Notes under the pieces: model-generated
Told to the model about the DNA's origin: nothing
Database searches by the model: none
What the model saw: the letters and a program-made list of their open reading frames with translations, nothing else
Made by a program: the position numbers and the translations under genes
Part shown: piece by piece, positions 203-10,322 of the stretch
Layout of the letters: each line of letters starts with the position of its first letter
Position numbering within the stretch: position 1 is the first letter of the stretch
Source: a virus
Taxonomy: Duplodnaviria > Heunggongvirae > Uroviricota > Caudoviricetes
Reading direction: 5' to 3' (one strand)
IMG/VR virus record: IMGVR_UViG_2693429623_000011
Length of the DNA: 10,322 nucleotides

Positions 203-343
203 TTACTGCTTACACTGTAAGAACGCCGCAAACTCCGCTCCCCAGAAGCTCATCCGTATTTCACACAGCGAACCGTGCAACATCCAGATGATGAGGATTG
301 CCGTCACGCAGAACGTGATGGTCGTAAGCGATTTTTGCGACAT
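203..343 (-). CDS. hok: Hok/Gef-family type I toxin (small membrane peptide, 46 aa)
   Basis: Manually translated minus-strand ORF, below the six-frame track cutoff: MSQKSLTTITFCVTAILIIWMLHGSLCEIRMSFWGAEFAAFLQCKQ. It has an N-terminal hydrophobic helix followed by the SLCEIR and AAF motifs shared with Hok, HokA and Gef. AAGGAG lies 8 nt upstream of the ATG, and the gene sits in the +1 overlap with the mok-like ORF. Confidence 0.75.
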   Translation of the reverse strand: MSQKSLTTITFCVTAILIIWMLHGSLCEIRMSFWGAEFAAFLQCKQ

Positions 344-533: not shown

Positions 534-794
534 TTAATTCTGAGGTAAAGGCAAGCTCATCTGATTGTTTCCCCTGTGTGAAGCTGGCAGATCATGCCAC
601 GGGATATCTTCTGAAGAGTGAACGCCGGAGGCGTGTTTTGATGTGAATTTATGGAAAGCTTCCAGTGTTGAGAAGCATACGCCGCATTCCAGATTGTTAC
701 ACTGGTAATACTTTTGCCGCACGGTGTTTGAATCATTTTCCGGACGACTGGTGCGGATACGGGCAGATGCGCCACAAAGCGGACAACGGAACAT
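534..794 (-). CDS. ogr: Ogr/Delta-family zinc-finger late-gene transcriptional activator
   Basis: The 86-aa product MFRCPLCGASARIRTSR...YYQCNNLECG has the Ogr-type CxxC...CxxxxC zinc-binding arrangement (C4, C7, C32, C37) and an N-terminal match to P2 Ogr. GGGAGG lies upstream of the ATG at 794. Confidence 0.85.
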   Translation of the reverse strand: MFRCPLCGASARIRTSRPENDSNTVRQKYYQCNNLECGVCFSTLEAFHKFTSKHASGVHSSEDIPWHDLPASHRGNNQMSLPLPQN

Positions 795-1037: not shown

Positions 1038-2540
1038 TCATGTTTTGATTTGTGCGCTAATAGAACTTTTCTGTCTTTTCTTCTGCTCTTGAATGTATGT
1101 CTGCACCATTTCTGTTATGGTTGAAAATGCACTATGTTCTTCTATAGTTATTTTTAATTTAAATGTTTTAATGACCGGATTGGTAAGGTTATTTGCATCA
1201 ACTCTCACCTCAATTGCACCATTCACTTTCTTTGGTTTGTTGGCTGTATATACGAACAACGGGAATATTTCTTCTTTGACTTGATGACGCCACTCTTCGC
1301 ATTCCAGCGATACAACTTGAACTGGCTCATTTCTCTTTTCTTTATAATAAAAATCGTTTTTATCCCTTTCTGTTGGAGTAAGAGATAACAAAGGACCAAT
1401 TTCTTTTGAAATTATACTGGATAGCGGTGTTTCCAAAGCTCCCCCAGCGTAAGGCATTCTTTCTGTTACGCCACATACACTACGCCATTTTCCTTTGGGG
1501 GCGGTAGGGGCTGAAGGTAGGTCAATCCTTTTGCTTTCAGTCAGCTCTTCCATTATCTCCCAATTAAATCCACACAGACGAAAATCTCCTTTTGCTGTAA
1601 ATGTTACCACAGCACGTTCAGCGATAGTATAACCTGTGTTTTGTAATAAAAACGACAGCGGGTAATTTATTGCCTTCGGATTAATATGAGTATGACAGTT
1701 TTTCAGTATTTCTTCACACTGCTTTTTCCAAAGTGGATAATGTTTTTCTTTATAAAGAGAAATATCATCTGCTGATACAGGGAAATACTCCTGTTGACTA
1801 AATGACTTGATGATTTTTTCTAGTGATTGTGGGGTAGTTTGTTCATTGTCAAAGTTTGTAACCAATGGGAATGCATCCGTTAGTTGACAAAGCAAATTAT
1901 CAACTTCATATTCAGATAAAGCTGTATAATAAGGAAGTACAATATTTAATTGCTCGTCATCGGCTACTTTAATGCTGAAATCGGGCATAGACTGAGTGAA
2001 TTGCTTCAGCTTAGCTTCCAGCAATTTAATTTGTTTATCCTTTTCATCTGGCTCAGCAGGAAGCAACCATGAAGAAGGCACTTTATAGCAGATTATATTA
2101 TGTTTTATTGCTGAAAAACGTGGACCGCTATCATTGGTAATGATTGCCACCTCCGAATCTGGATCGTCAGCGCAATACCCTGCCGCAATACCAACAAAAC
2201 GATCGTCGGCCTCCTGATAATCCAATTGTTCAGATAACTGTTCACATGGTTTCAGGCTTAGATCCATGGTAAGAAAAACTCGCGGCGAGCGTTCACGAAT
2301 AACAAGAGTCATGTCAGTTGAATCAACTACTTGATTAAATAGGCTAGCAGCCTTCCTTGCTTTTTTGGATAGGCGGGAATTACCTTGCCCTTTCTGGCGG
2401 TCAATCTCTTGCTGAATGGGCCTTGTAATAATGATACATACTTCATCACAAGCAGTAATCTCGGAAAAATTTACCTGCGTCAAGTCCTTGCATTGTAGAA
2501 AAATGTTTGAGTCTGGGAATAAATACAGCTTTTTGTTCAT
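1038..2540 (-). CDS. Orphan 500-aa protein with an N-terminal PIN-like nuclease domain and an uncharacterised C-terminal region; candidate phage-carried defence/abortive-infection cargo
   Basis: A long uninterrupted ORF in a markedly AT-rich segment, whereas the flanking phage genes are noticeably GC-richer. A stop-free 1.5-kb ORF is very unlikely by chance in AT-rich DNA. GAGG lies 6 nt upstream of the ATG. N-terminal motifs fit a PIN fold: LYLFPD10SN, IQQE45ID, EAD112D113RFVGIAAGY, AIIT135ND137. No Walker A, HEPN or helicase motifs were seen in the C-terminal ~340 aa. Confidence 0.75.
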   Translation of the reverse strand: MNKKLYLFPDSNIFLQCKDLTQVNFSEITACDEVCIIITRPIQQEIDRQKGQGNSRLSKKARKAASLFNQVVDSTDMTLVIRERSPRVFLTMDLSLKPCEQLSEQLDYQEADDRFVGIAAGYCADDPDSEVAIITNDSGPRFSAIKHNIICYKVPSSWLLPAEPDEKDKQIKLLEAKLKQFTQSMPDFSIKVADDEQLNIVLPYYTALSEYEVDNLLCQLTDAFPLVTNFDNEQTTPQSLEKIIKSFSQQEYFPVSADDISLYKEKHYPLWKKQCEEILKNCHTHINPKAINYPLSFLLQNTGYTIAERAVVTFTAKGDFRLCGFNWEIMEELTESKRIDLPSAPTAPKGKWRSVCGVTERMPYAGGALETPLSSIISKEIGPLLSLTPTERDKNDFYYKEKRNEPVQVVSLECEEWRHQVKEEIFPLFVYTANKPKKVNGAIEVRVDANNLTNPVIKTFKLKITIEEHSAFSTITEMVQTYIQEQKKRQKSSISAQIKT

Positions 2541-2765: not shown

Positions 2766-3875
2766 TCACTCTGTTTCTGCTATCCATTCCGGGATTTTTG
2801 CCTCAAGCTCAAGCTGCGTGGTAAAGCCGCTGTTATCAATGGTGTGCTCGGCTTTTGCAATAATCCAGTCCTGATTATCAATCTCGCTTTTAAATCCTGT
2901 TACCGTGCCATGCATTTCGGGGTAGAGTTCTGCACGTCCATGCGCCAGTGTGATGGAGAATGATGCGGCTCCGCGTTGTAGCTGCTGCCACTTTGCCGCC
3001 GCTGCACGTCTTGCTGCCTGCTCGTTCTGATAAGTTTTGCGTAACACAAACACGTTGCCTTCCGCACCTTCCATATAGTCGCCTTCCCGGCTGCTGCTTT
3101 TCTCCTTTTTTGGTTTTGACGGTTTGCGGCGTTTCACGCTGACTTTTTTCTTTTTCCCGTAATTAAGATCAAGCCAGTAAGCGCGTACCCCCGTATACGC
3201 TTCGCGGTCAGCAATGCGGAACTGATGGCGATCGCCGCTGCTGCGTGTGATGGCGAACGAGGGCAACGGCTGGCCCTGTGCGTTCACGCCACCACCGGGC
3301 ATGATGAATAACAGATTACCGCTTTTTACCGTGGTGATTGCGCCCAGCATTTCCGCCATGCGCGTAAGGAAGGACATGTCGCTTTCTTCGGTCTGGTCGG
3401 CGTGGTCGATTTCGATATCCATCAGCATTTCGCTGATTTGCGGTTTCAGACCATACCGATGAGCGATGGCGGATACCACACGCTCAACGGTCACATCATG
3501 CCAGGACACCTCACGTTTAACGTTAAATTCAGCCCGAAAATCTGCGCTTCTGGCTGAAACAGTCAGCCTGTCCGGCGGTCCTTCGTGAGCGATTTCATCA
3601 ACAATGTAAGTGCCTTTTTCTGTCAGCGGTTCTCCCTTCCAGCCAATGAGAACCGTCAGGCGCGCGCCCCGTGGCGGTAGCTGCAACTGACCATCCGCAT
3701 CATCCAGCGTGATGGTGAGCTGGTCCGCCTCAAATCCCCGGTTGTCGGTCAGTGACAGGCTCATCAGGCGCTCTGCCACGCCTGACAGCGTTTTACCCTC
3801 CGCGAGAATATCAAAATCCGGCATTTTCACGGGGTCTGTGCCCTGACTGAGCAATTGCATGGTGGTGTCGGTCAT
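2766..3875 (-). CDS. D: P2 gpD-like tail protein (phage late control gene D family)
   Basis: The translation resembles the gpD family, especially the C-terminal block ...ITLAHGRAELYPEMHGTVTGFKSEIDNQDWIIAKAEHTIDNSGFTTQLELE. Start chosen at ATG 3875 (MTDTTMQ...) because AGGGAGGGAG lies 5 nt upstream. The longer ORF reaching 4007 has no ribosome-binding site and would nearly abut FI. Confidence 0.8.
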   Translation of the reverse strand: MTDTTMQLLSQGTDPVKMPDFDILAEGKTLSGVAERLMSLSLTDNRGFEADQLTITLDDADGQLQLPPRGARLTVLIGWKGEPLTEKGTYIVDEIAHEGPPDRLTVSARSADFRAEFNVKREVSWHDVTVERVVSAIAHRYGLKPQISEMLMDIEIDHADQTEESDMSFLTRMAEMLGAITTVKSGNLLFIMPGGGVNAQGQPLPSFAITRSSGDRHQFRIADREAYTGVRAYWLDLNYGKKKKVSVKRRKPSKPKKEKSSSREGDYMEGAEGNVFVLRKTYQNEQAARRAAAAKWQQLQRGAASFSITLAHGRAELYPEMHGTVTGFKSEIDNQDWIIAKAEHTIDNSGFTTQLELEAKIPEWIAETE

Positions 3876-4032
3876 CTGCTCCCTCCCTGTGTGGCATGGT
3901 CGCATGTGCGTGCGGAGGGGGTTACTGCTTTTTGTTGTCGCCGTGGCGGGAGAATGGCGCAGGGGTGAGATTACGCGCGTGGTGGGTGATGATTGTTGCC
4001 GAATCATTTAACGGATACAAGGGGTTGAAGCT
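3876..4032. promoter_or_regulatory. Divergent intergenic region between D (minus) and FI (plus); presumed promoter region for both
   Basis: A 157-bp non-coding gap between two divergently oriented genes, each with a strong Shine-Dalgarno sequence. No canonical Ogr-dependent late-promoter dyad (TGT-N12-ACA) was found by eye. Confidence 0.3.
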
Positions 4033-5217
4033 ATGAGTGAAACTCGTTTTCATGGTGCCCGTGTTACGGAAAATACCGACCTGGTAACAGCGATTAACGA
4101 TGTTGATTCCAGCGTTATCGGTATCGTGGCAACGGCGGATGATGCGGACGCGGAGCTGTTCCCGCTGAACAAGCCCACACTGCTGCCCCGCGTCAATGAC
4201 GTGCTGGGAAAATGCGGAACAACGGGGACGCTTTATCGTGCGCTTAAGGCCATCGCAGACCAGGTGAGCACAAAGGTGATCGTCGTTCGCGTGGCTGAAC
4301 ACAAAGAAGAAGACGGAAAAACGCAGGATCAACTGGTTATCGGTGGTTCTGAATCTGACGGCAGCTATACGGGGATGTATGCGCTGCTTGTTGCAGAGCA
4401 GGATGAAAGCATCGGATACCGTCCGCGTATTCTGGCCGCGCCGGAGCTGGACACGGAGGCGGTGACAAAATCCCTGTGCGTGATTGCGGGTAAACTGCGC
4501 GCGTTTGTGTATGCCTCATGTCATGACTGTAACACGATGGCTGAGGCAATTACCTACCGCCAGAAATTCAACGAACGTGAGGTGATGCTCTTATGGCCGG
4601 ACTTCATCGCCTACAACCCGAAAAGTGGCAAAAACGAAACGTTCCCCGCGCCTGCCTATGCGTGCGGCCTTCGTGCGTACATTGACCATGAGCAGGGCTG
4701 GCACAAATCGCTGTCCAACGTTCCGGTTAAAAATGTGCTGGGGATGTCCAGGCATGTGTTCTGGTCGTTGCAGGCCGAAGACAGTGATGCCAACAGCCTC
4801 AACAACAAAGAAATCACGACCATTATTCGTCGCAACGGGTTCCGCTTCTGGGGCAACCGCACACCGGAAACGAACGCCTACATCTTTGAGGTGTATACCC
4901 GAACCGCACAGGTGCTGGCTGATTCAATTGCGGAAGCGCAGTTTGAAACCATCGACAGTCCACTGACGCCTGCGAACGTGAAGGATGTTATCGGTGCCAT
5001 CAGGGCAAAACTGGATTCACTGGTTACTGCCGGGAAACTGATTGGGGCGTCGTGCTGGTATGACGTGGTGGATAACGGCACCACGAATTTACGTCAGGGG
5101 CGCGTGCGTATTCGCTACAAATATACGCCTGTTCCCCCGCTGGAAGACATGGAGCTTTACCAGTCGTTTACTGATGAATTCTTTGGTCCCGCATTTGCGG
5201 TGCTGGGAGGTGCCTGA
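4033..5217 (+). CDS. FI: Contractile tail sheath protein (P2 gpFI-like)
   Basis: The 394-aa product has N-terminal similarity to P2 FI (…GIVATADDADAELFPLNKP…TGTLYRALKAIADQ…). AAGGGG ribosome-binding site is present. The stop overlaps the FII start (ATGA). Confidence 0.9.
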   Translation: MSETRFHGARVTENTDLVTAINDVDSSVIGIVATADDADAELFPLNKPTLLPRVNDVLGKCGTTGTLYRALKAIADQVSTKVIVVRVAEHKEEDGKTQDQLVIGGSESDGSYTGMYALLVAEQDESIGYRPRILAAPELDTEAVTKSLCVIAGKLRAFVYASCHDCNTMAEAITYRQKFNEREVMLLWPDFIAYNPKSGKNETFPAPAYACGLRAYIDHEQGWHKSLSNVPVKNVLGMSRHVFWSLQAEDSDANSLNNKEITTIIRRNGFRFWGNRTPETNAYIFEVYTRTAQVLADSIAEAQFETIDSPLTPANVKDVIGAIRAKLDSLVTAGKLIGASCWYDVVDNGTTNLRQGRVRIRYKYTPVPPLEDMELYQSFTDEFFGPAFAVLGGA

Positions 5218-5729
5218 TGGCTGTACCAAAACATCTTCGCTTTTTTACGCTGTTTGTGGATGGTGAAAACGAAGTGGGTAAGGTGACGTCCGTCACTCTG
5301 CCTAAGCTGACGCGCAAAACCGACAGCTACCGGGGTGGTGGCATGATGGGAGCGGTAAGTATTGATCTCGGCCTGGATGACTCCGCGCTTGATGCGAGCT
5401 TTGTCATGGGGGGCGCAGTTCGTGAGCTGTTCCTTAAGTATGGCGGCACGATTGACGGTACGCTGCTGCGTTTTGCGGGTGAATACTACACCGACGCTGA
5501 AAGCGACCTGTATGAAGTCGAAATGCGCGGACGTGTGACGGAAATTGATATGGGGGAAGCCAAACAGGGCGAAGCCACATCACACACTTACGCCATTAAA
5601 AACACCTACTACAAGCTGAGTGTTAACGATCGCCCGTTGTGGGAGATTGACCTGCTGAACTTCATTTACCGGAAGGACGGCAGGGACATTGTGCCCGATC
5701 GCATCCGTTCCGCGCTCGGGCTTGGCTGA
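5217..5729 (+). CDS. FII: Tail tube protein (P2 gpFII-like)
   Basis: A 170-aa ORF immediately after the sheath gene, translationally coupled (ATGA overlap) with GGGAGG upstream. Size and position match P2 FII. Confidence 0.88.
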   Translation: MAVPKHLRFFTLFVDGENEVGKVTSVTLPKLTRKTDSYRGGGMMGAVSIDLGLDDSALDASFVMGGAVRELFLKYGGTIDGTLLRFAGEYYTDAESDLYEVEMRGRVTEIDMGEAKQGEATSHTYAIKNTYYKLSVNDRPLWEIDLLNFIYRKDGRDIVPDRIRSALGLG

Positions 5730-5783: not shown

Positions 5784-6149
5784 ATGAAAGAGACGAAAAA
5801 CATCGATACCGAAAACACGGTCGTTGCTGACACTGTGAAAGAAACCAGTGAGCGTGGCGTAAAACTTACCCAACCAATTGAGCGAGGCGGCGAAAAAATC
5901 ACGTATGTGGAGATCACCGGGGCTATTGAGCAGGCTGGATCTCTGCGAGATTTGTCGCTGTCTGATGTGCTGAATTTGAAAGCGGAATCCATGTTTACGC
6001 TGCTGTCACGCGTGACATCACCGCGACTGGATGAAGTGACGATCAAAAAAATGGCATCCCGTGACTTTATTCAGTTATGTGTGGTTGCCGTAAATTTTTT
6101 GAGCGGTGCGGACTCTGGCGAGAAGAACGAACAGGCGACGGAAGCCTGA
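5784..6149 (+). CDS. E: Tail assembly chaperone (P2 gpE-like), zero-frame product
   Basis: A 121-aa ORF between the tube and tape-measure genes, with AAGGAG 7 nt upstream. It contains a TTTTTTG slippery site near its 3' end, as in P2 E. Confidence 0.85.
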   Translation: MKETKNIDTENTVVADTVKETSERGVKLTQPIERGGEKITYVEITGAIEQAGSLRDLSLSDVLNLKAESMFTLLSRVTSPRLDEVTIKKMASRDFIQLCVVAVNFLSGADSGEKNEQATEA

Positions 6150-6313
6150 TCACGGTTGTGTGCTTTGAGCACATAGAAGACTTTGTGGCGGATATTGCCG
6201 CCATTTTTAACTGGTCGCCCGCCGAAATCTTCATGATGACGCCCGGCGAAGTGGTTAGCTGGCGTGAGCGGGCGGCACTTCGCAGCGGGAATGCAGACAA
6301 TGAAGACTCTTGA
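5784..6313 (+). CDS. E+E': Tail assembly chaperone frameshift product (gpE+E'-like), made by programmed -1 ribosomal frameshift at 6095-6101
   Basis: The -1 frame ORF 6077-6313 is open across the slippery heptamer T TTT TTG and runs to a TGA at 6311-6313 that overlaps the T start. Predicted fusion is about 176 aa (...VVAVNFL then ERCGLWREERTGDG...). This matches the conserved chaperone frameshift upstream of tape measure genes. Confidence 0.75.
6095..6101 (+). promoter_or_regulatory. Programmed -1 frameshift slippery heptamer (T TTT TTG)
   Basis: The heptamer is in X XXY YYZ register relative to the gpE frame (codons AAT TTT TTG), identical in sequence to the P2 E/E' slip site. Confidence 0.75.
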
Positions 6314-9137
6314 TATCCGGGTCGCTTTCAGCGCCGTTGACAGGCTGACCCGGCCTGCCGAAAACGCCCGCCGCCTGATGGGGCAGTTTGGTGACTCCAT
6401 CCAGCGAACGCAGGGGGCGATCAAAAATCTCGAGCGTCAGGCGCGTTCATTTGAGCGCGCCCGTGACGCTGTCAGTAAAGCGGATGCGGGCATCGTGAAA
6501 GCACGACGCCAGCTTAACGCCCTTAATCAGTTACAACGCACGGGTACAGTGCTCAGCGAAAAACAACAAAAGCTGATGCAGCAGTTAAGCACCCGGCTTG
6601 AACGCCTGAATGAATCGCGCACACGGGAAATTCAGAAAATGCGGGAACTTGGCGGAGAGCTGAAACGCCACGGCATTTCCCTGACAGGCAGCGATAACAC
6701 CATCCAGCAGGCCATCAGACGCACCGGACAATACAACAACCAGCTTGAACGCGAACGGCGGGCGCTTGCGCGTGTAACGCAGGCGCGTGAGCGGTATTCA
6801 CGCGCGCAGGAAACAGCGGGAAAACTGAAAACAGGTGGTGCGCTGGCAACAGGTGCGGCGGCAGCGGGCGGCTATGCTGCCGGGCGTTTTTTGCAGCCCG
6901 CTATCGGGTTCGGGAAAGAGATGTCCCGTGTTCAGGCACTGACGCGAATCGATAAAAACAGCCCGCAGTTTAAGGCGCTGCGTGAGCAGGCGTTAAAACT
7001 TGGCTCTGAAACGCAGTTCACCGCAGGCGATGCCGCCAGTGGACAGGCATTTCTTGCAATGGCTGGTTTCACACCGCAGGCCATTCAGGCTGCGCTTCCC
7101 GGCGTGCTGAGCATGGCAACGGCTGGCGGTATGGACCTCGGCGAGACGGCGGATATTGGTTCCAATATCCTGACGCAGTTCGGCCTCTCTGCTGACCAGA
7201 TGGACCGGGTCGGTGACACACTTACCGCAGCGTTTACCCGTACCAACACTGACCTTCGCGCACTGGGCGAAACCATGAAATATGCAGGTCCGGTGGCGGG
7301 TAAGCTGGGAATATCGCTGGAGCAGGCCGCAGCGATGGCGGGCGTGCTGGCGAAGATGGGTATCAGGGGGAGTGATGCAGGTACAGCGTTGCGTAAAAGC
7401 CTGGCCAATCTGTCATCACCGCCAAAGGCAGCGGCAGAAGCACTGAAAGAGCTGGGGGTGTCAGTTGCTGACGCCAAAGGCAAAATGCGCCCGATGGAGA
7501 ATGTGCTGGCCGATCTCTATAAAGCCACCCGCAAATACGGGGAGGTTGACCGGGTATCGTTCTTTAAGGACATTGCCGGAGAAGAGGCTTTCACATCATT
7601 TATGGGCCTCGTTGATGCGGCAGGNNNNNNNNNNNNNNNNNNNNNNNNNNNNNNNNNNNNNNNNNNNGCCAAACTGAGAAAAGAACTTGAAGGCGCGCGC
7701 GGTGAGGCAGAACGCACGGCAAAGGTTATGGCCAATAACCTTGATGGCAACCTGAAATCACTCGGCAGTGCATGGGAAGGTCTGCGTATTCGCATCAGTG
7801 ATCTGGTTGACGGTCCGCTGCGTTCTGTCACGCAGTGGCTCACGCGGGTTGTCTCAAAGGTGACGGCGCTGGCGCAGGCCCACCCGGCACTGACGCGCCA
7901 GTTACTGATAGCGGGAGGCGCACTGCTGGCGACAACAGCAACGGTTGGTTCGTTGTCTCTGGTTATTGGGGTGCTTCACGGGAAGCTGGCTACGTTGCGT
8001 CTCGGTTTTTCTCTCCTGACCGAATCAATGAATGTTGTCAGGGTTCTGCCTGCATTATGGGGAATGGTGACGGGTTCCGTTTCTTTACTTGGTGGCGCTA
8101 TCGGGGCGCTGTTCAGTCCGGTTAGTCTTATCGTGGCTGCGCTTGCCGGAGCTGCCGTTCTTATCTGGAAATACTGGGATCCCATCAGGGCATTTTTTGC
8201 CGGGGTGTTCAGCGGGATTATGGAAAGGCTGACCCCGTTGCGCGAAACCTTTGAACGGTTTGGCCCTGTTTTTGATGTCGTGCGCGATGGGATTATTCAG
8301 GTCTTTAACTGGTTTAAATCGCTGCTGTCACCGATGGAGTCCAGCAAGGAAACGCTGGATAAATGTGCCAGTGCTGGCGAGATATTCGGTAACGTTCTTG
8401 GCGGTGCGTTACAACTTGTTCTGACACCTGCAAAAATGCTACTGGATACGCTGGCGTGGATACTTGAAAAACTTGGCGTCCTTCCGGATGAAGCGGAAAG
8501 GGCGCGCAAGAAAATCGAAGACGCACAGCGTGCGGCCATTCTTCAGGACAAGGTTGCCTTGCTTCAGGGGAACCTGGCGAAAATCAATCCGCCGAAGCCT
8601 GTGGAAAATGGCAATGGCACCGGAGGTGATAAACCCAAAGACAACAAACCGCTCACAGACAGCAATACCGGGACGCTACGCAGACTCAGCAAAATTGCTG
8701 ATAACACAGGTAAGCTGGTTGATGAGACGAAAAAACGCATTGGCCCCGGCGATATTGTCTTTAAGAACCTGCCCCGCGCACTTGCTGTTCGTGGGGAGTG
8801 GCAGGAGCGGAAGATTGCGCAGGTCAGTAAGCCTGCCCCCGCAATTAATATCACACCCGTGGTCCCGGCTCCGCTGCCTCCGGCGCTGGTCCCTGTTGTT
8901 GCGGCCAGCTCCCGCCCGGTGGCGGAGGCCATACGCTCTCCAGTGGCATCAGTTCCTGTAACTTCCCGTAACCGGGAGCCTGTTGCCTCCGGATTTGGTG
9001 GTGAAATTCATGTTCATCTGCATAACGTTGTTACGCAGAATCCCCGCGAACTGGCGAAACTGGTCGGTGAAATGGTCAGGGCAGAAATGGAACGGCGCGC
9101 CCGTGCCGGGCGTGGCAGTTTTTACGATAAAGATTGA
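6300..9137 (+). CDS. T: Tail tape measure protein (P2 gpT-like); an internal 43-nt N-run leaves part of the sequence unknown
   Basis: A ~945-aa ORF after E/E' with an N-terminal coiled-coil-like region rich in R/Q/E/L and a central hydrophobic segment (LLIAGGALLATTATVGSLSLVIGVLHG...). Start is uncertain: ATG 6300 (MKTLDIR), ATG 6291 or GTG 6264 are all possible. Confidence 0.85.
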   Translation: MKTLDIRVAFSAVDRLTRPAENARRLMGQFGDSIQRTQGAIKNLERQARSFERARDAVSKADAGIVKARRQLNALNQLQRTGTVLSEKQQKLMQQLSTRLERLNESRTREIQKMRELGGELKRHGISLTGSDNTIQQAIRRTGQYNNQLERERRALARVTQARERYSRAQETAGKLKTGGALATGAAAAGGYAAGRFLQPAIGFGKEMSRVQALTRIDKNSPQFKALREQALKLGSETQFTAGDAASGQAFLAMAGFTPQAIQAALPGVLSMATAGGMDLGETADIGSNILTQFGLSADQMDRVGDTLTAAFTRTNTDLRALGETMKYAGPVAGKLGISLEQAAAMAGVLAKMGIRGSDAGTALRKSLANLSSPPKAAAEALKELGVSVADAKGKMRPMENVLADLYKATRKYGEVDRVSFFKDIAGEEAFTSFMGLVDAAXXXXXXXXXXXXXXXAKLRKELEGARGEAERTAKVMANNLDGNLKSLGSAWEGLRIRISDLVDGPLRSVTQWLTRVVSKVTALAQAHPALTRQLLIAGGALLATTATVGSLSLVIGVLHGKLATLRLGFSLLTESMNVVRVLPALWGMVTGSVSLLGGAIGALFSPVSLIVAALAGAAVLIWKYWDPIRAFFAGVFSGIMERLTPLRETFERFGPVFDVVRDGIIQVFNWFKSLLSPMESSKETLDKCASAGEIFGNVLGGALQLVLTPAKMLLDTLAWILEKLGVLPDEAERARKKIEDAQRAAILQDKVALLQGNLAKINPPKPVENGNGTGGDKPKDNKPLTDSNTGTLRRLSKIADNTGKLVDETKKRIGPGDIVFKNLPRALAVRGEWQERKIAQVSKPAPAINITPVVPAPLPPALVPVVAASSRPVAEAIRSPVASVPVTSRNREPVASGFGGEIHVHLHNVVTQNPRELAKLVGEMVRAEMERRARAGRGSFYDKD
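7625..7667. other. Masked or unknown sequence (43 N) inside the tape measure gene
   Basis: A run of N. The reading frame is continuous across it, which suggests masking of real sequence rather than an arbitrary-length gap. Confidence 0.95.
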
Positions 9138-9149
9138 GGAGTCATGGCC

Positions 9150-9638
9150 ATGATGATGATCTACGGCATGTTTGTTTTTGAGCTGCGTACATTGCCGCAT
9201 CAGCAGTTACAGCAAAACAAAAGCTGGCGGCATGTGAAAAATGAACGCGTTAACCGTTCGGCAAGCTGGCAGTATATCGGTGCAGGTGATGAGCGCATCG
9301 TTCTTTCTGGTGTGCTTTATCCTGAAATTACAGGTGGCGAAGTGTCGCTGTCGCTGCTGACCACGCAGGCGTATACAGGACGACCCTGGCCTCTGATTGA
9401 TGGCGTCGGGCAGATTTACGGCATGTATGTCCTGACCGAAACGAATACGACCCGCTCCGAGTTTGATCGCTACGGTAAGGCGAAAAAGATAGAATTTTCA
9501 CTGACTCTTGAACGCTGTGATGAGGATTTGCGGGAGCGCCTGCAATCCTCATCGTTCAGCGATATGCTGTCCGGCTTCAAAGATAAGGTAACATCATCCC
9601 TTAACAGCGCGGCCAGTTCAGTTAAAGGGTTGTTCTGA
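9150..9638 (+). CDS. U: Tail protein gpU-like
   Basis: Product MMMIYGMFVFELRTLPHQQLQQNKSWRHV...WQYIGAGDERIVLSGVLYPEITGG closely resembles P2 gpU. Start set at ATG 9150, with GAGGAG (9136-9141) 8 nt upstream. ATG 9144 is too close to the Shine-Dalgarno sequence. Confidence 0.88.
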   Translation: MMMIYGMFVFELRTLPHQQLQQNKSWRHVKNERVNRSASWQYIGAGDERIVLSGVLYPEITGGEVSLSLLTTQAYTGRPWPLIDGVGQIYGMYVLTETNTTRSEFDRYGKAKKIEFSLTLERCDEDLRERLQSSSFSDMLSGFKDKVTSSLNSAASSVKGLF

Positions 9639-9646
9639 TTTAACAC

Positions 9647-9684
9647 AAAAACCGCTAATGGTCAGATTAGCGGTTATTTTGTTT
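9647..9684 (+). terminator. Rho-independent terminator after U
   Basis: 9-bp stem ACCGCTAAT(9651-9659)/ATTAGCGGT(9666-9674) with a 6-nt loop, followed by TATTTTGTTT. An A-run precedes it. Confidence 0.55.
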
Positions 9685-9701
9685 CCTGACTCTTCTCTAT
9701 T

Positions 9702-10271
9702 NNNNNNNNNNNNNNNNNNNNNNNNNNNNNNNNNNNNNNNNNNNNNNNNNNNNNNNNNNNNNNNNNNNNNNNNNNNNNNNNNNNNNNNNNNNNNNNNNNN
9801 NNNNNNNNNNNNNNNNNNNNNNNNNNNNNNNNNNNNNNNNNNNNNNNNNNNNNNNNNNNNNNNNNNNNNNNNNNNNNNNNNNNNNNNNNNNNNNNNNNNN
9901 NNNNNNNNNNNNNNNNNNNNNNNNNNNNNNNNNNNNNNNNNNNNNNNNNNNNNNNNNNNNNNNNNNNNNNNNNNNNNNNNNNNNNNNNNNNNNNNNNNNN
10001 NNNNNNNNNNNNNNNNNNNNNNNNNNNNNNNNNNNNNNNNNNNNNNNNNNNNNNNNNNNNNNNNNNNNNNNNNNNNNNNNNNNNNNNNNNNNNNNNNNNN
10101 NNNNNNNNNNNNNNNNNNNNNNNNNNNNNNNNNNNNNNNNNNNNNNNNNNNNNNNNNNNNNNNNNNNNNNNNNNNNNNNNNNNNNNNNNNNNNNNNNNNN
10201 NNNNNNNNNNNNNNNNNNNNNNNNNNNNNNNNNNNNNNNNNNNNNNNNNNNNNNNNNNNNNNNNNNNNNNN
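9702..10271. other. Masked or unknown sequence (570 N)
   Basis: A run of N. The minus-strand ORF 9674-10303 in the track is an artefact of translating N. Confidence 0.95.
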
Positions 10272-10322
10272 TTCAAATATTTGTTCACATCCTGCACAAA
10301 CAAGAGCGTTTCGTTGCAGGTC

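Follow-up and report, generated by a model that had tools for sequence, protein, structure and literature searches.

Introduction

In phage P2, all genes from V through ogr lie on one strand and are fully colinear. The tail genes FI-FII-E-E'-T-U-D form the F operon under the promoter PF and are followed by ogr, with D just downstream of U on the same strand. The late promoters of P2 depend on Ogr, for which the recognised consensus is TGT-N12-ACA (PMC3931495). In the P2 record, the annotated transcript starts lie about 55 bp downstream of the centres of the activator sites. One of these sites (3057-3087) is given for both pP (start at 3016) and pO (start at 3127), in the 173-bp divergent gap between the P and O coding regions. 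Its centre lies 55.5 bp from each of the two mapped starts, which are 111 bp apart, and 46 bp from the centres of the -10 hexamers, TAGCCT and GAAACT. In the FI promoter of P2, approximately 80-88 bp separate the site from the FI start, and 46-47 bp separate its centre from the -10 element.

Phage P88 (NC_026014) is arranged differently. On its map, V-W-J-I-H-G occupy the plus strand, U-T-E'-E-FII-FI the minus strand, and D, ogr and hok the plus strand again; an invertible fibre segment and an invertase gene stand after V-W-J-I-H-G and before U. P88 is chemically inducible and lytic, and spontaneous release, plaque formation and lysogeny in K-12 have been described for phage phiSM (PMC5285337, PMC6456863).

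A stretch of 10,322 nucleotides of viral DNA (IMG/VR record IMGVR_UViG_2693429623_000011), referred to here as the window, was described in an earlier note as having a non-canonical gene order, with D divergent from FI-U. The explanations offered there were an inversion, the joining of two prophage remnants, and a misassembly. Comparison of the window with P88, P2 and their relatives shows that its gene order is the fixed lineage order of P88-like phages and makes it probable that D is driven by an Ogr site shared with FI.

Results and discussion

Gene map of the window

The gene map was obtained from the listing of open reading frames, Pfam scans and direct reading of the window. Within these 10 kb, identity and gene order both place the window in Xuanwuvirus, as the right-hand end of an E. 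coli prophage of P88-like type (genus Xuanwuvirus, family Peduoviridae), which adjoins ihfA in the closest complete E. coli genome. At the prophage end near ihfA stands, for context, a hok/gef-type toxin gene of 46 aa (203-343, minus strand), which by tblastn is 100% identical to the Hok/Gef gene annotated in E. coli 2015C-3108. The gene ogr (534-794, minus strand) encodes a zinc-finger late-gene activator of 86 aa (Pfam Ogr_Delta, E = 5e-14). Its cysteine motif is CX2CX24CX4C, and its match to the NCBIfam family PRK09678 was below the family cut-off.

A cargo gene (1038-2540, minus strand) coding for a 500-aa protein with a PIN_4 domain (Pfam, E = 4.5e-8) is inserted between D and ogr; its GC content is 36-42%, compared with approximately 55% in the flanks. 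A sigma-70-like sequence, TTGATA-16-TATTAT, is located at 2603-2576 on the minus strand. The searches of the cargo protein against PADLOC and NCBIfam gave no match.

The tail/baseplate hub gene D (2766-3875, minus strand; 369 aa; Pfam Phage_GPD, E = 4e-17) has an intact reading frame, and its product is 98.6% identical to P88 D. The long open reading frame extends to 4007, and the ATG at 3875 is the start used by relatives. The Shine-Dalgarno sequence, read directly from the DNA as AGGGAGGGAG (3879-3888, minus strand), has its GGAGG core 6 nt from the ATG and is the strong ribosome-binding site that had been described for D. A remodelling of the D N-terminus at the breakpoint was also considered and was dropped, since the first ~15-25 residues vary in all clades, P2 included.

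Across an intergenic gap of 157 bp (3876-4032), the plus-strand block begins with the tail sheath gene FI (4033-5217; Pfam Phage_sheath_1 and related domains) and the tail tube gene FII (5217-5729; Pfam Phage_tube, E = 2e-46). E (5784-6149) is an open reading frame for which Pfam gave no match, and E+E' (5784-6313) arises by a -1 frameshift at the TTTTTTG slip site 6095-6101, the E' frame ending at 6313. The frameshift site is the same as in P2. The tape measure gene T (6300-9137; Pfam PhageMin_Tail, E = 3e-58) is open from 6264, the ATG at 6300 being chosen as in annotated relatives, and 43 nt are masked inside it (7625-7667). The tail protein gene U (9144-9638; Pfam Phage_P2_GpU, E = 8e-39) closes the block. 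The strands and positions of D, the cargo gene, ogr and FI-U, together with the length of the divergent gap, agree with those given in the earlier note.

Between U and the invertase gene convergent with it, a bidirectional hairpin terminator was located at 9642-9683. It has arms of 18 nt, 89% complementary, and a loop of 6 nt; the hairpin at 9650-9675 has T-runs on both strands, and the termination of FI-U that had been described before was found again. The Rfam scan of the window returned nothing at gathering thresholds.

Comparison with P88 and P2

The order and the strands of U-T-E'-E-FII-FI, D, ogr and hok in P88 are identical to those of the window, and in P88 the invertase gene is likewise next to U. 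The proteins of the two are 97-99% identical for all the genes compared except the C-terminal part of T, for which the value was 85%. The two differ between D and ogr: the window holds the 1.5-kb PIN cargo gene there, whereas in P88 ogr follows 45 bp after D, a position at which the RefSeq record of P88 has no ogr annotated.

The gene set of the window and its FI-U order are those of the P2 F operon. In contrast to P2, D and FI diverge on opposite strands, 157 bp apart, and FI-U has its own terminator. The colinear order that defines the P2 type, with D after U, is present in P2 and in 22 colinear relatives and absent from the window. Since D and ogr of P88 keep the orientation of V-W-J-I-H-G, it is the FI-U block, promoter included, that is flipped, and not D. 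Of the inversion relative to P2 that had been proposed, the breakpoints near the D-FI gap and after U were retained.

Distribution of the D-FI junction

A query of 2.8 kb spanning D, the gap and FI was searched against 5426 complete E. coli genomes. The junction was present in 1110 of them, with at least 80% coverage in one piece and mostly 95-99% identity. It was also found in the isolated phages P88, PhiR44_2, 500465-2, P884B11, Citrobacter phage Shae_phiSM and Chuche; over ~2.5 kb (D, gap and FI), the nucleotide identity to P88, P884B11 and PhiR44_2 was 97-98%.

An assembly artefact, in which D would truly stand downstream of U and the contig would have been misjoined, is hardly credible in view of these results. 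The same junction occurs in the 1110 complete genomes, which are mostly long-read and closed, and in independently sequenced phages, among them inducible and plaque-forming ones. Moreover, when a synthetic query running from U into D was used, 1413 genomes matched either half and none joined the two.

It is similarly very far from probable that the window combines the remnants of two prophages or underwent a recent rearrangement specific to its strain. Some local insertion is indicated by the low-GC PIN cargo gene between D and ogr, and some local decay by the annotation of D as frameshifted in one close relative. Against this, the D gene of the window is intact, the order is common to phage genera whose D proteins are 59-80% identical, and exactly this order is found in the intact phages P88 and phiSM, which are inducible or plaque-forming (PMC5285337, PMC6456863). 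Because P88 and phiSM carry it, the inverted gene order is fully functional. The two explanations put forward in the earlier note besides inversion, prophage remnants and misassembly, are excluded by the complete genomes and the functional phages.

The search was extended to more distant relatives. A protein search with D revealed the inverted order in the Klebsiella phages Kp4871-3 (Reginaelenavirus) and Kp4848-1 (Reipivirus) and in the Salmonella phage SEN5 (Senquatrovirus), and the colinear order in Cartapus (Elveevirus) and P2. Species-representative genomes were then scanned with a D alignment, which added 80 further loci, the best 80 of 502 matches; this sampling is biased towards the query. 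With this bias, the inverted order was observed in 65 of the 87 D-holding loci surveyed and the colinear order in 22. In the 65 inverted loci D was at least 59% identical to D of the window, and in the 22 colinear loci at most 54%. The hosts of the inverted loci belonged to many Enterobacterales genera, among them Salmonella, Edwardsiella, Symbiopectobacterium, Serratia, Erwinia, Enterobacter, Pantoea, Klebsiella, Xenorhabdus, Photorhabdus, Providencia, Morganella and, with Y. aleksiciae, Yersinia; one inverted locus came from an Aeromonas genome bin. In the trees of D and of FI, both simple neighbour-joining trees without support values, one branch each splits the two orders exactly. This would fit a single ancient inversion inherited by a large clade.

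The order with D facing away from FI is therefore the standard, anciently fixed order of P88-like phages and their relatives, and as such it is ordinary. It can be called non-canonical only by reference to P2, being canonical in P88 (Xuanwuvirus) and in most of the related loci surveyed, and the comparison of synteny with related prophages that had been suggested for the window gave the same order as in P88-like phages. The order is visible in published, classified phage genomes and is thus already known. In the searchable literature on Xuanwuvirus, P88, SEN4/5, Peduoviridae and P2-like gene order, neither the FI-U inversion nor the D promoter was found to be discussed. For genome annotation, it follows as a caution that P2 is not a template for all Peduoviridae, and that D diverging from an adjacent FI, as in about one of five E. 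coli genomes, should not be taken as a sign of rearrangement, of a prophage remnant or of misassembly.

The masked stretch and the invertase

The stretch masked at 9702-10271 had been considered as a possible place for a second, colinear copy of D. With 570 nt it is too small for a gene of ~1.1 kb, which rules out a second D. What it encodes is a Gin/Pin-type DNA invertase (9674-10261, minus strand), whose gene is almost wholly masked. To the right of the mask, 10272-10322 corresponds to the 5' part of the P88 invertase gene (26977-27564), and the reverse complement of this flank translates to DLQRNALVCAGCEQIFE. On the other side, E. coli FDAARGOS_943 matches window 9200-9701, one 502-nt half of the synthetic query, with 100% identity and carries a 588-bp gene, annotated as 'recombinase family protein', 35 bp from U. 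The invertase is that of the tail-fibre switch and is unconnected with the inversion of FI-U.

The invertases Gin, Cin, Pin and Hin switch invertible segments such as Mu G, P1 C and e14 P. Like these segments, FI-U is a flipped block with an adjacent invertase gene, immediately beyond U, and it could be supposed that FI-U is itself actively switched by this enzyme, in the way of Mu G or P1 C. Such a switch is most improbable. Inverted repeats, for which a search at both breakpoints had been recommended, were not found from border to border in the window or in P88, where only pairs at chance level were seen; FI-U thus differs from the invertible segments in having no flanking crossover repeats. 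A second orientation was looked for with the same synthetic query, made of the 5' part of D joined to the flipped 3' end of U, and was seen in none of the 1413 E. coli genomes, so that close relatives of the window do not show both orientations. In addition, the record of SEN5 has no invertase annotated between G and U, yet its FI-U block is inverted, and an invertase gene occupies the corresponding position in Cartapus, which is colinear. In P88-type prophages, the invertase has been reported to switch a tail-fibre segment between H and G (bioRxiv 10.1101/2022.05.07.487787).

Predicted shared Ogr promoter in the D-FI gap

D is cut off from the transcript of the FI promoter and, as the earlier note pointed out, needs a promoter of its own. 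A search of the window for exact TGT-N12-ACA gave no match. Comparison with relatives was required for the site to emerge: a single putative Ogr-type activator site, TGTCGCCGTGGCGGGAGA, of the form TGT-N12-AGA, lies at 3936-3953, midway in the gap, one mismatch away from the P2 consensus. Klebsiella and Salmonella relatives have exact TGT-N12-ACA at the same place, and in P88 the gap is likewise 157 bp long and contains the same activator site. The site has a T-rich flank on the side towards D.

In total, 66 gaps of the inverted clade were compared, most of them ~145-162 bp long and 61 of them unique in sequence. The TGT-N12-ACA/AGA site was present in 62 of the 66, centred 77-90 bp from the FI start, and no recognisable site was seen in the other 4. 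Across the clade, no second site was found at a consistent position; the other one-mismatch matches were scattered.

On each side of the site, a -10 element is predicted with its centre 46 bp from the site centre: GACCAT (3896-3901, minus strand) for the late promoter of D and GATGAT (3988-3993, plus strand) for that of FI. Hexamers of the type NANNNT at 44-48 bp from the site centre are conserved on both sides in 98% of the 61 unique gaps. The distance was exactly 46 bp in 48 of the 61 gaps on the D side and in 54 on the FI side. For control offsets, NANNNT frequencies of 0-33% were obtained overall and of 0-15% on the D side.

For FI, the one-mismatch Ogr site and the -10 element stand at the right spacing for a P2-type FI promoter, with the same layout as in P2 and a predicted start. 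The 17 colinear relatives examined keep the site and the FI-side hexamer in 16 cases and the distal hexamer in only 4; by these counts, the D-side element is peculiar to the clade with the inverted order, and the site evidently travelled with FI.

The resemblance extends to the P-O region. Both sequence features of pP/pO, a single mid-gap dyad and symmetric -10 hexamers at ~46 bp, were found in the window: the P2 pP/pO region and the D-FI gap each have one central dyad of the TGT-N12-(A/C/G)CA type with a -10 hexamer 46 bp to each side. The divergent gaps are ~150 bp long both in the inverted clade and between P and O of P88, which is somewhat shorter than the P-O gap of P2. When the whole P88 genome was scanned, only its P-O and D-FI gaps combined a TGT-N12-A[CG]A site with a hexamer on either side; the site in the P-O gap had the same TGT-N12-AGA form, and its hexamers also stood about 46 bp away. 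A duplication of the P-O gap was considered as the source of the D-FI gap and was rejected, because the T-rich flank and the CG tract differ in relative orientation between the two gaps.

The best-supported model is that the D-FI gap serves as an Ogr-dependent late promoter working in both directions from a single site, and we regard this as likely from the conserved sequence elements and from the analogy with pP/pO. The shared-site pair would drive D and FI in the window, whereas it drives P and O in P2. The one activator site at 3936-3953, with one -10 element at 46 bp on each side, would serve both genes, with predicted starts at ~4000 (plus strand) and ~3889 (minus strand), ~111 bp apart. 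The leader of D is predicted to be very short, ~13-17 nt (~14), and would carry the strong ribosome-binding site.

It seems rather unlikely that, within the same fixed lineage order, D depends on a separate promoter, either of the sigma-70 type or served by another factor through the CG tract, in both cases without read-through. Such a promoter would be in line with the weakness of GACCAT as a -10 hexamer, with the conserved alternating CG tract that abuts it, and with the deviation of the window site from TGT-N12-ACA. However, a scan of the minus strand of 3876-4032 for the sigma-70 consensus gave no promoter-like site. Furthermore, the mirror-symmetric 46-bp geometry is kept in nearly all the gaps, is specific to the inverted clade and matches that of P2 pP/pO, which argues for the shared site. 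As to read-through, transcription would have to reach D through 5.6 kb of antisense DNA, past the bidirectional terminator.

Proposed origin of the predicted two-way promoter

With the shared site as the preferred model, the following course of events may be proposed. In the ancestor of a large P2-related clade, a block comprising the FI promoter and FI-FII-E/E'-T-U would have been inverted, and D and ogr would have remained oriented like the other late operons. The P2-type F operon would have been split in two by this inversion. FI-U would then have ended at its own hairpin terminator, and the dyad-symmetric Ogr site of the FI promoter would have come to sit directly upstream of D. A transcript from D could run on towards ogr; since ogr follows D by ~50 bp in most relatives, D-ogr would form one late unit there.

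It is somewhat more likely than not that an ancient inversion made a late promoter that had worked in one direction work in both in this manner, with FI-U and D-ogr co-regulated by one site, ogr placed behind its own late promoter, and the CG tract acting as a specific, possibly supercoiling-sensitive, promoter element. A symmetric activator site lets an inversion split an operon without loss of co-regulation, of which this locus would be a tidy example. The model makes the testable prediction that P2-like phages have a second pair of divergent late promoters served by one shared site. As a contribution, the D/FI promoter model is a modest new inference and neither describes nor opens a new kind of system.

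CG tract beside the D-side element

An alternating pyrimidine/purine tract, mostly CG, CGCATGTGCGTGCG, is located at 3901-3914, just upstream of the predicted -10 element of D. The median run of this alternation was 12 nt across the gaps. Tracts of at least 10 nt were found in 77% of the gaps, compared with 10% on the FI side and 4% in shuffled sequences. The tract could belong to a different control element. Similar CG-rich tracts were observed beside the P-side -10 element in both P88 and P2.

Sequence elements beside the predicted D promoter

An alternating pyrimidine/purine tract, composed mostly of CG, was found at window positions 3901-3914, where it abuts the predicted -10 element of D on its upstream side. 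The tract is conserved: among the compared loci it occupies the equivalent position in L003, L004 (SEN5), L006 and most of L009-L075. In the intergenic regions that separate D from FI in the inverted clade, that is, the P2-related loci whose FI-U block is flipped relative to P2, its median length was 12 nt. A tract of at least 10 nt was present on the D side in 77% of the 61 unique gaps; the corresponding figures were 10% for the FI side and 4% for shuffled sequences. Comparable CG-rich tracts adjoin the P-side -10 element in the gap between the divergent late genes P and O of both P88 and P2.

Accessory genes

The cargo gene inserted between D and ogr (1038-2540, minus strand) encodes a protein of 500 aa with an N-terminal PIN_4 domain. 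Its GC content is 36-42%, compared with approximately 55% in the flanks, and it is preceded by a promoter-like site of its own, the sigma-70-like TTGATA-16-TATTAT, at 2603-2576 on the minus strand. The D-ogr interval is an uncommon cargo site, since the spacing exceeds 300 bp in only 4 of the 64 inverted-clade loci. No match to the protein was obtained in PADLOC or NCBIfam; the gene may have an as yet uncharacterised function in defence or lysogenic conversion.

Beyond ogr, at the prophage end, lies a hok/gef-type toxin gene of 46 aa (MSQKSLTTITFCVTAILIIWMLHGSLCEIRMSFWGAEFAAFLQCKQ; 203-343, minus strand), which fell below the 50-aa minimum of the ORF list. The Rfam scan at the gathering threshold reported neither Sok nor any other RNA. 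At the other end of the window, a Gin/Pin-type DNA invertase gene (9674-10261, minus strand; masked at 9702-10271) is convergent with U, and the two share a bidirectional terminator at 9642-9683. The invertase is part of a tail-fibre host-range switch located just outside the window.

Annotation of related records

The P88 RefSeq record (NC_026014) carries no gene at 34476-34733 (plus strand), where an Ogr with 99% identity to that of the window is encoded. In the SEN5 record the label "ogr" is placed on a 120-nt ORF of the opposite strand, and tblastn located ogr at 13141-13374 of the locus, on the same strand as D. The late activator is therefore unannotated or mis-annotated in these references.

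A P88-like prophage region with 98% identity was also found in a record titled Vagococcus sp. WN89Y (NZ_JBQPOM010000071). Vagococcus is Gram-positive, and the match is most probably explained by contamination or mislabelling of the assembly, not by a true host.

D is intact in the window. In E. coli 2015C-3108, the closest complete genome, D (12267-13376 of the locus) is annotated as a truncated protein of 267 aa adjoining a partial pseudogene fragment, and by tblastn all 369 aa align with 99.5% identity. The annotation reflects either a different start call or decay in some O111-lineage copies. The T ORF, interrupted by a 43-nt masked patch (7625-7667), was listed with a GTG start at 6264; in annotated relatives T begins at the ATG at position 6300, within the last part of the E' frame, which ends at 6313.
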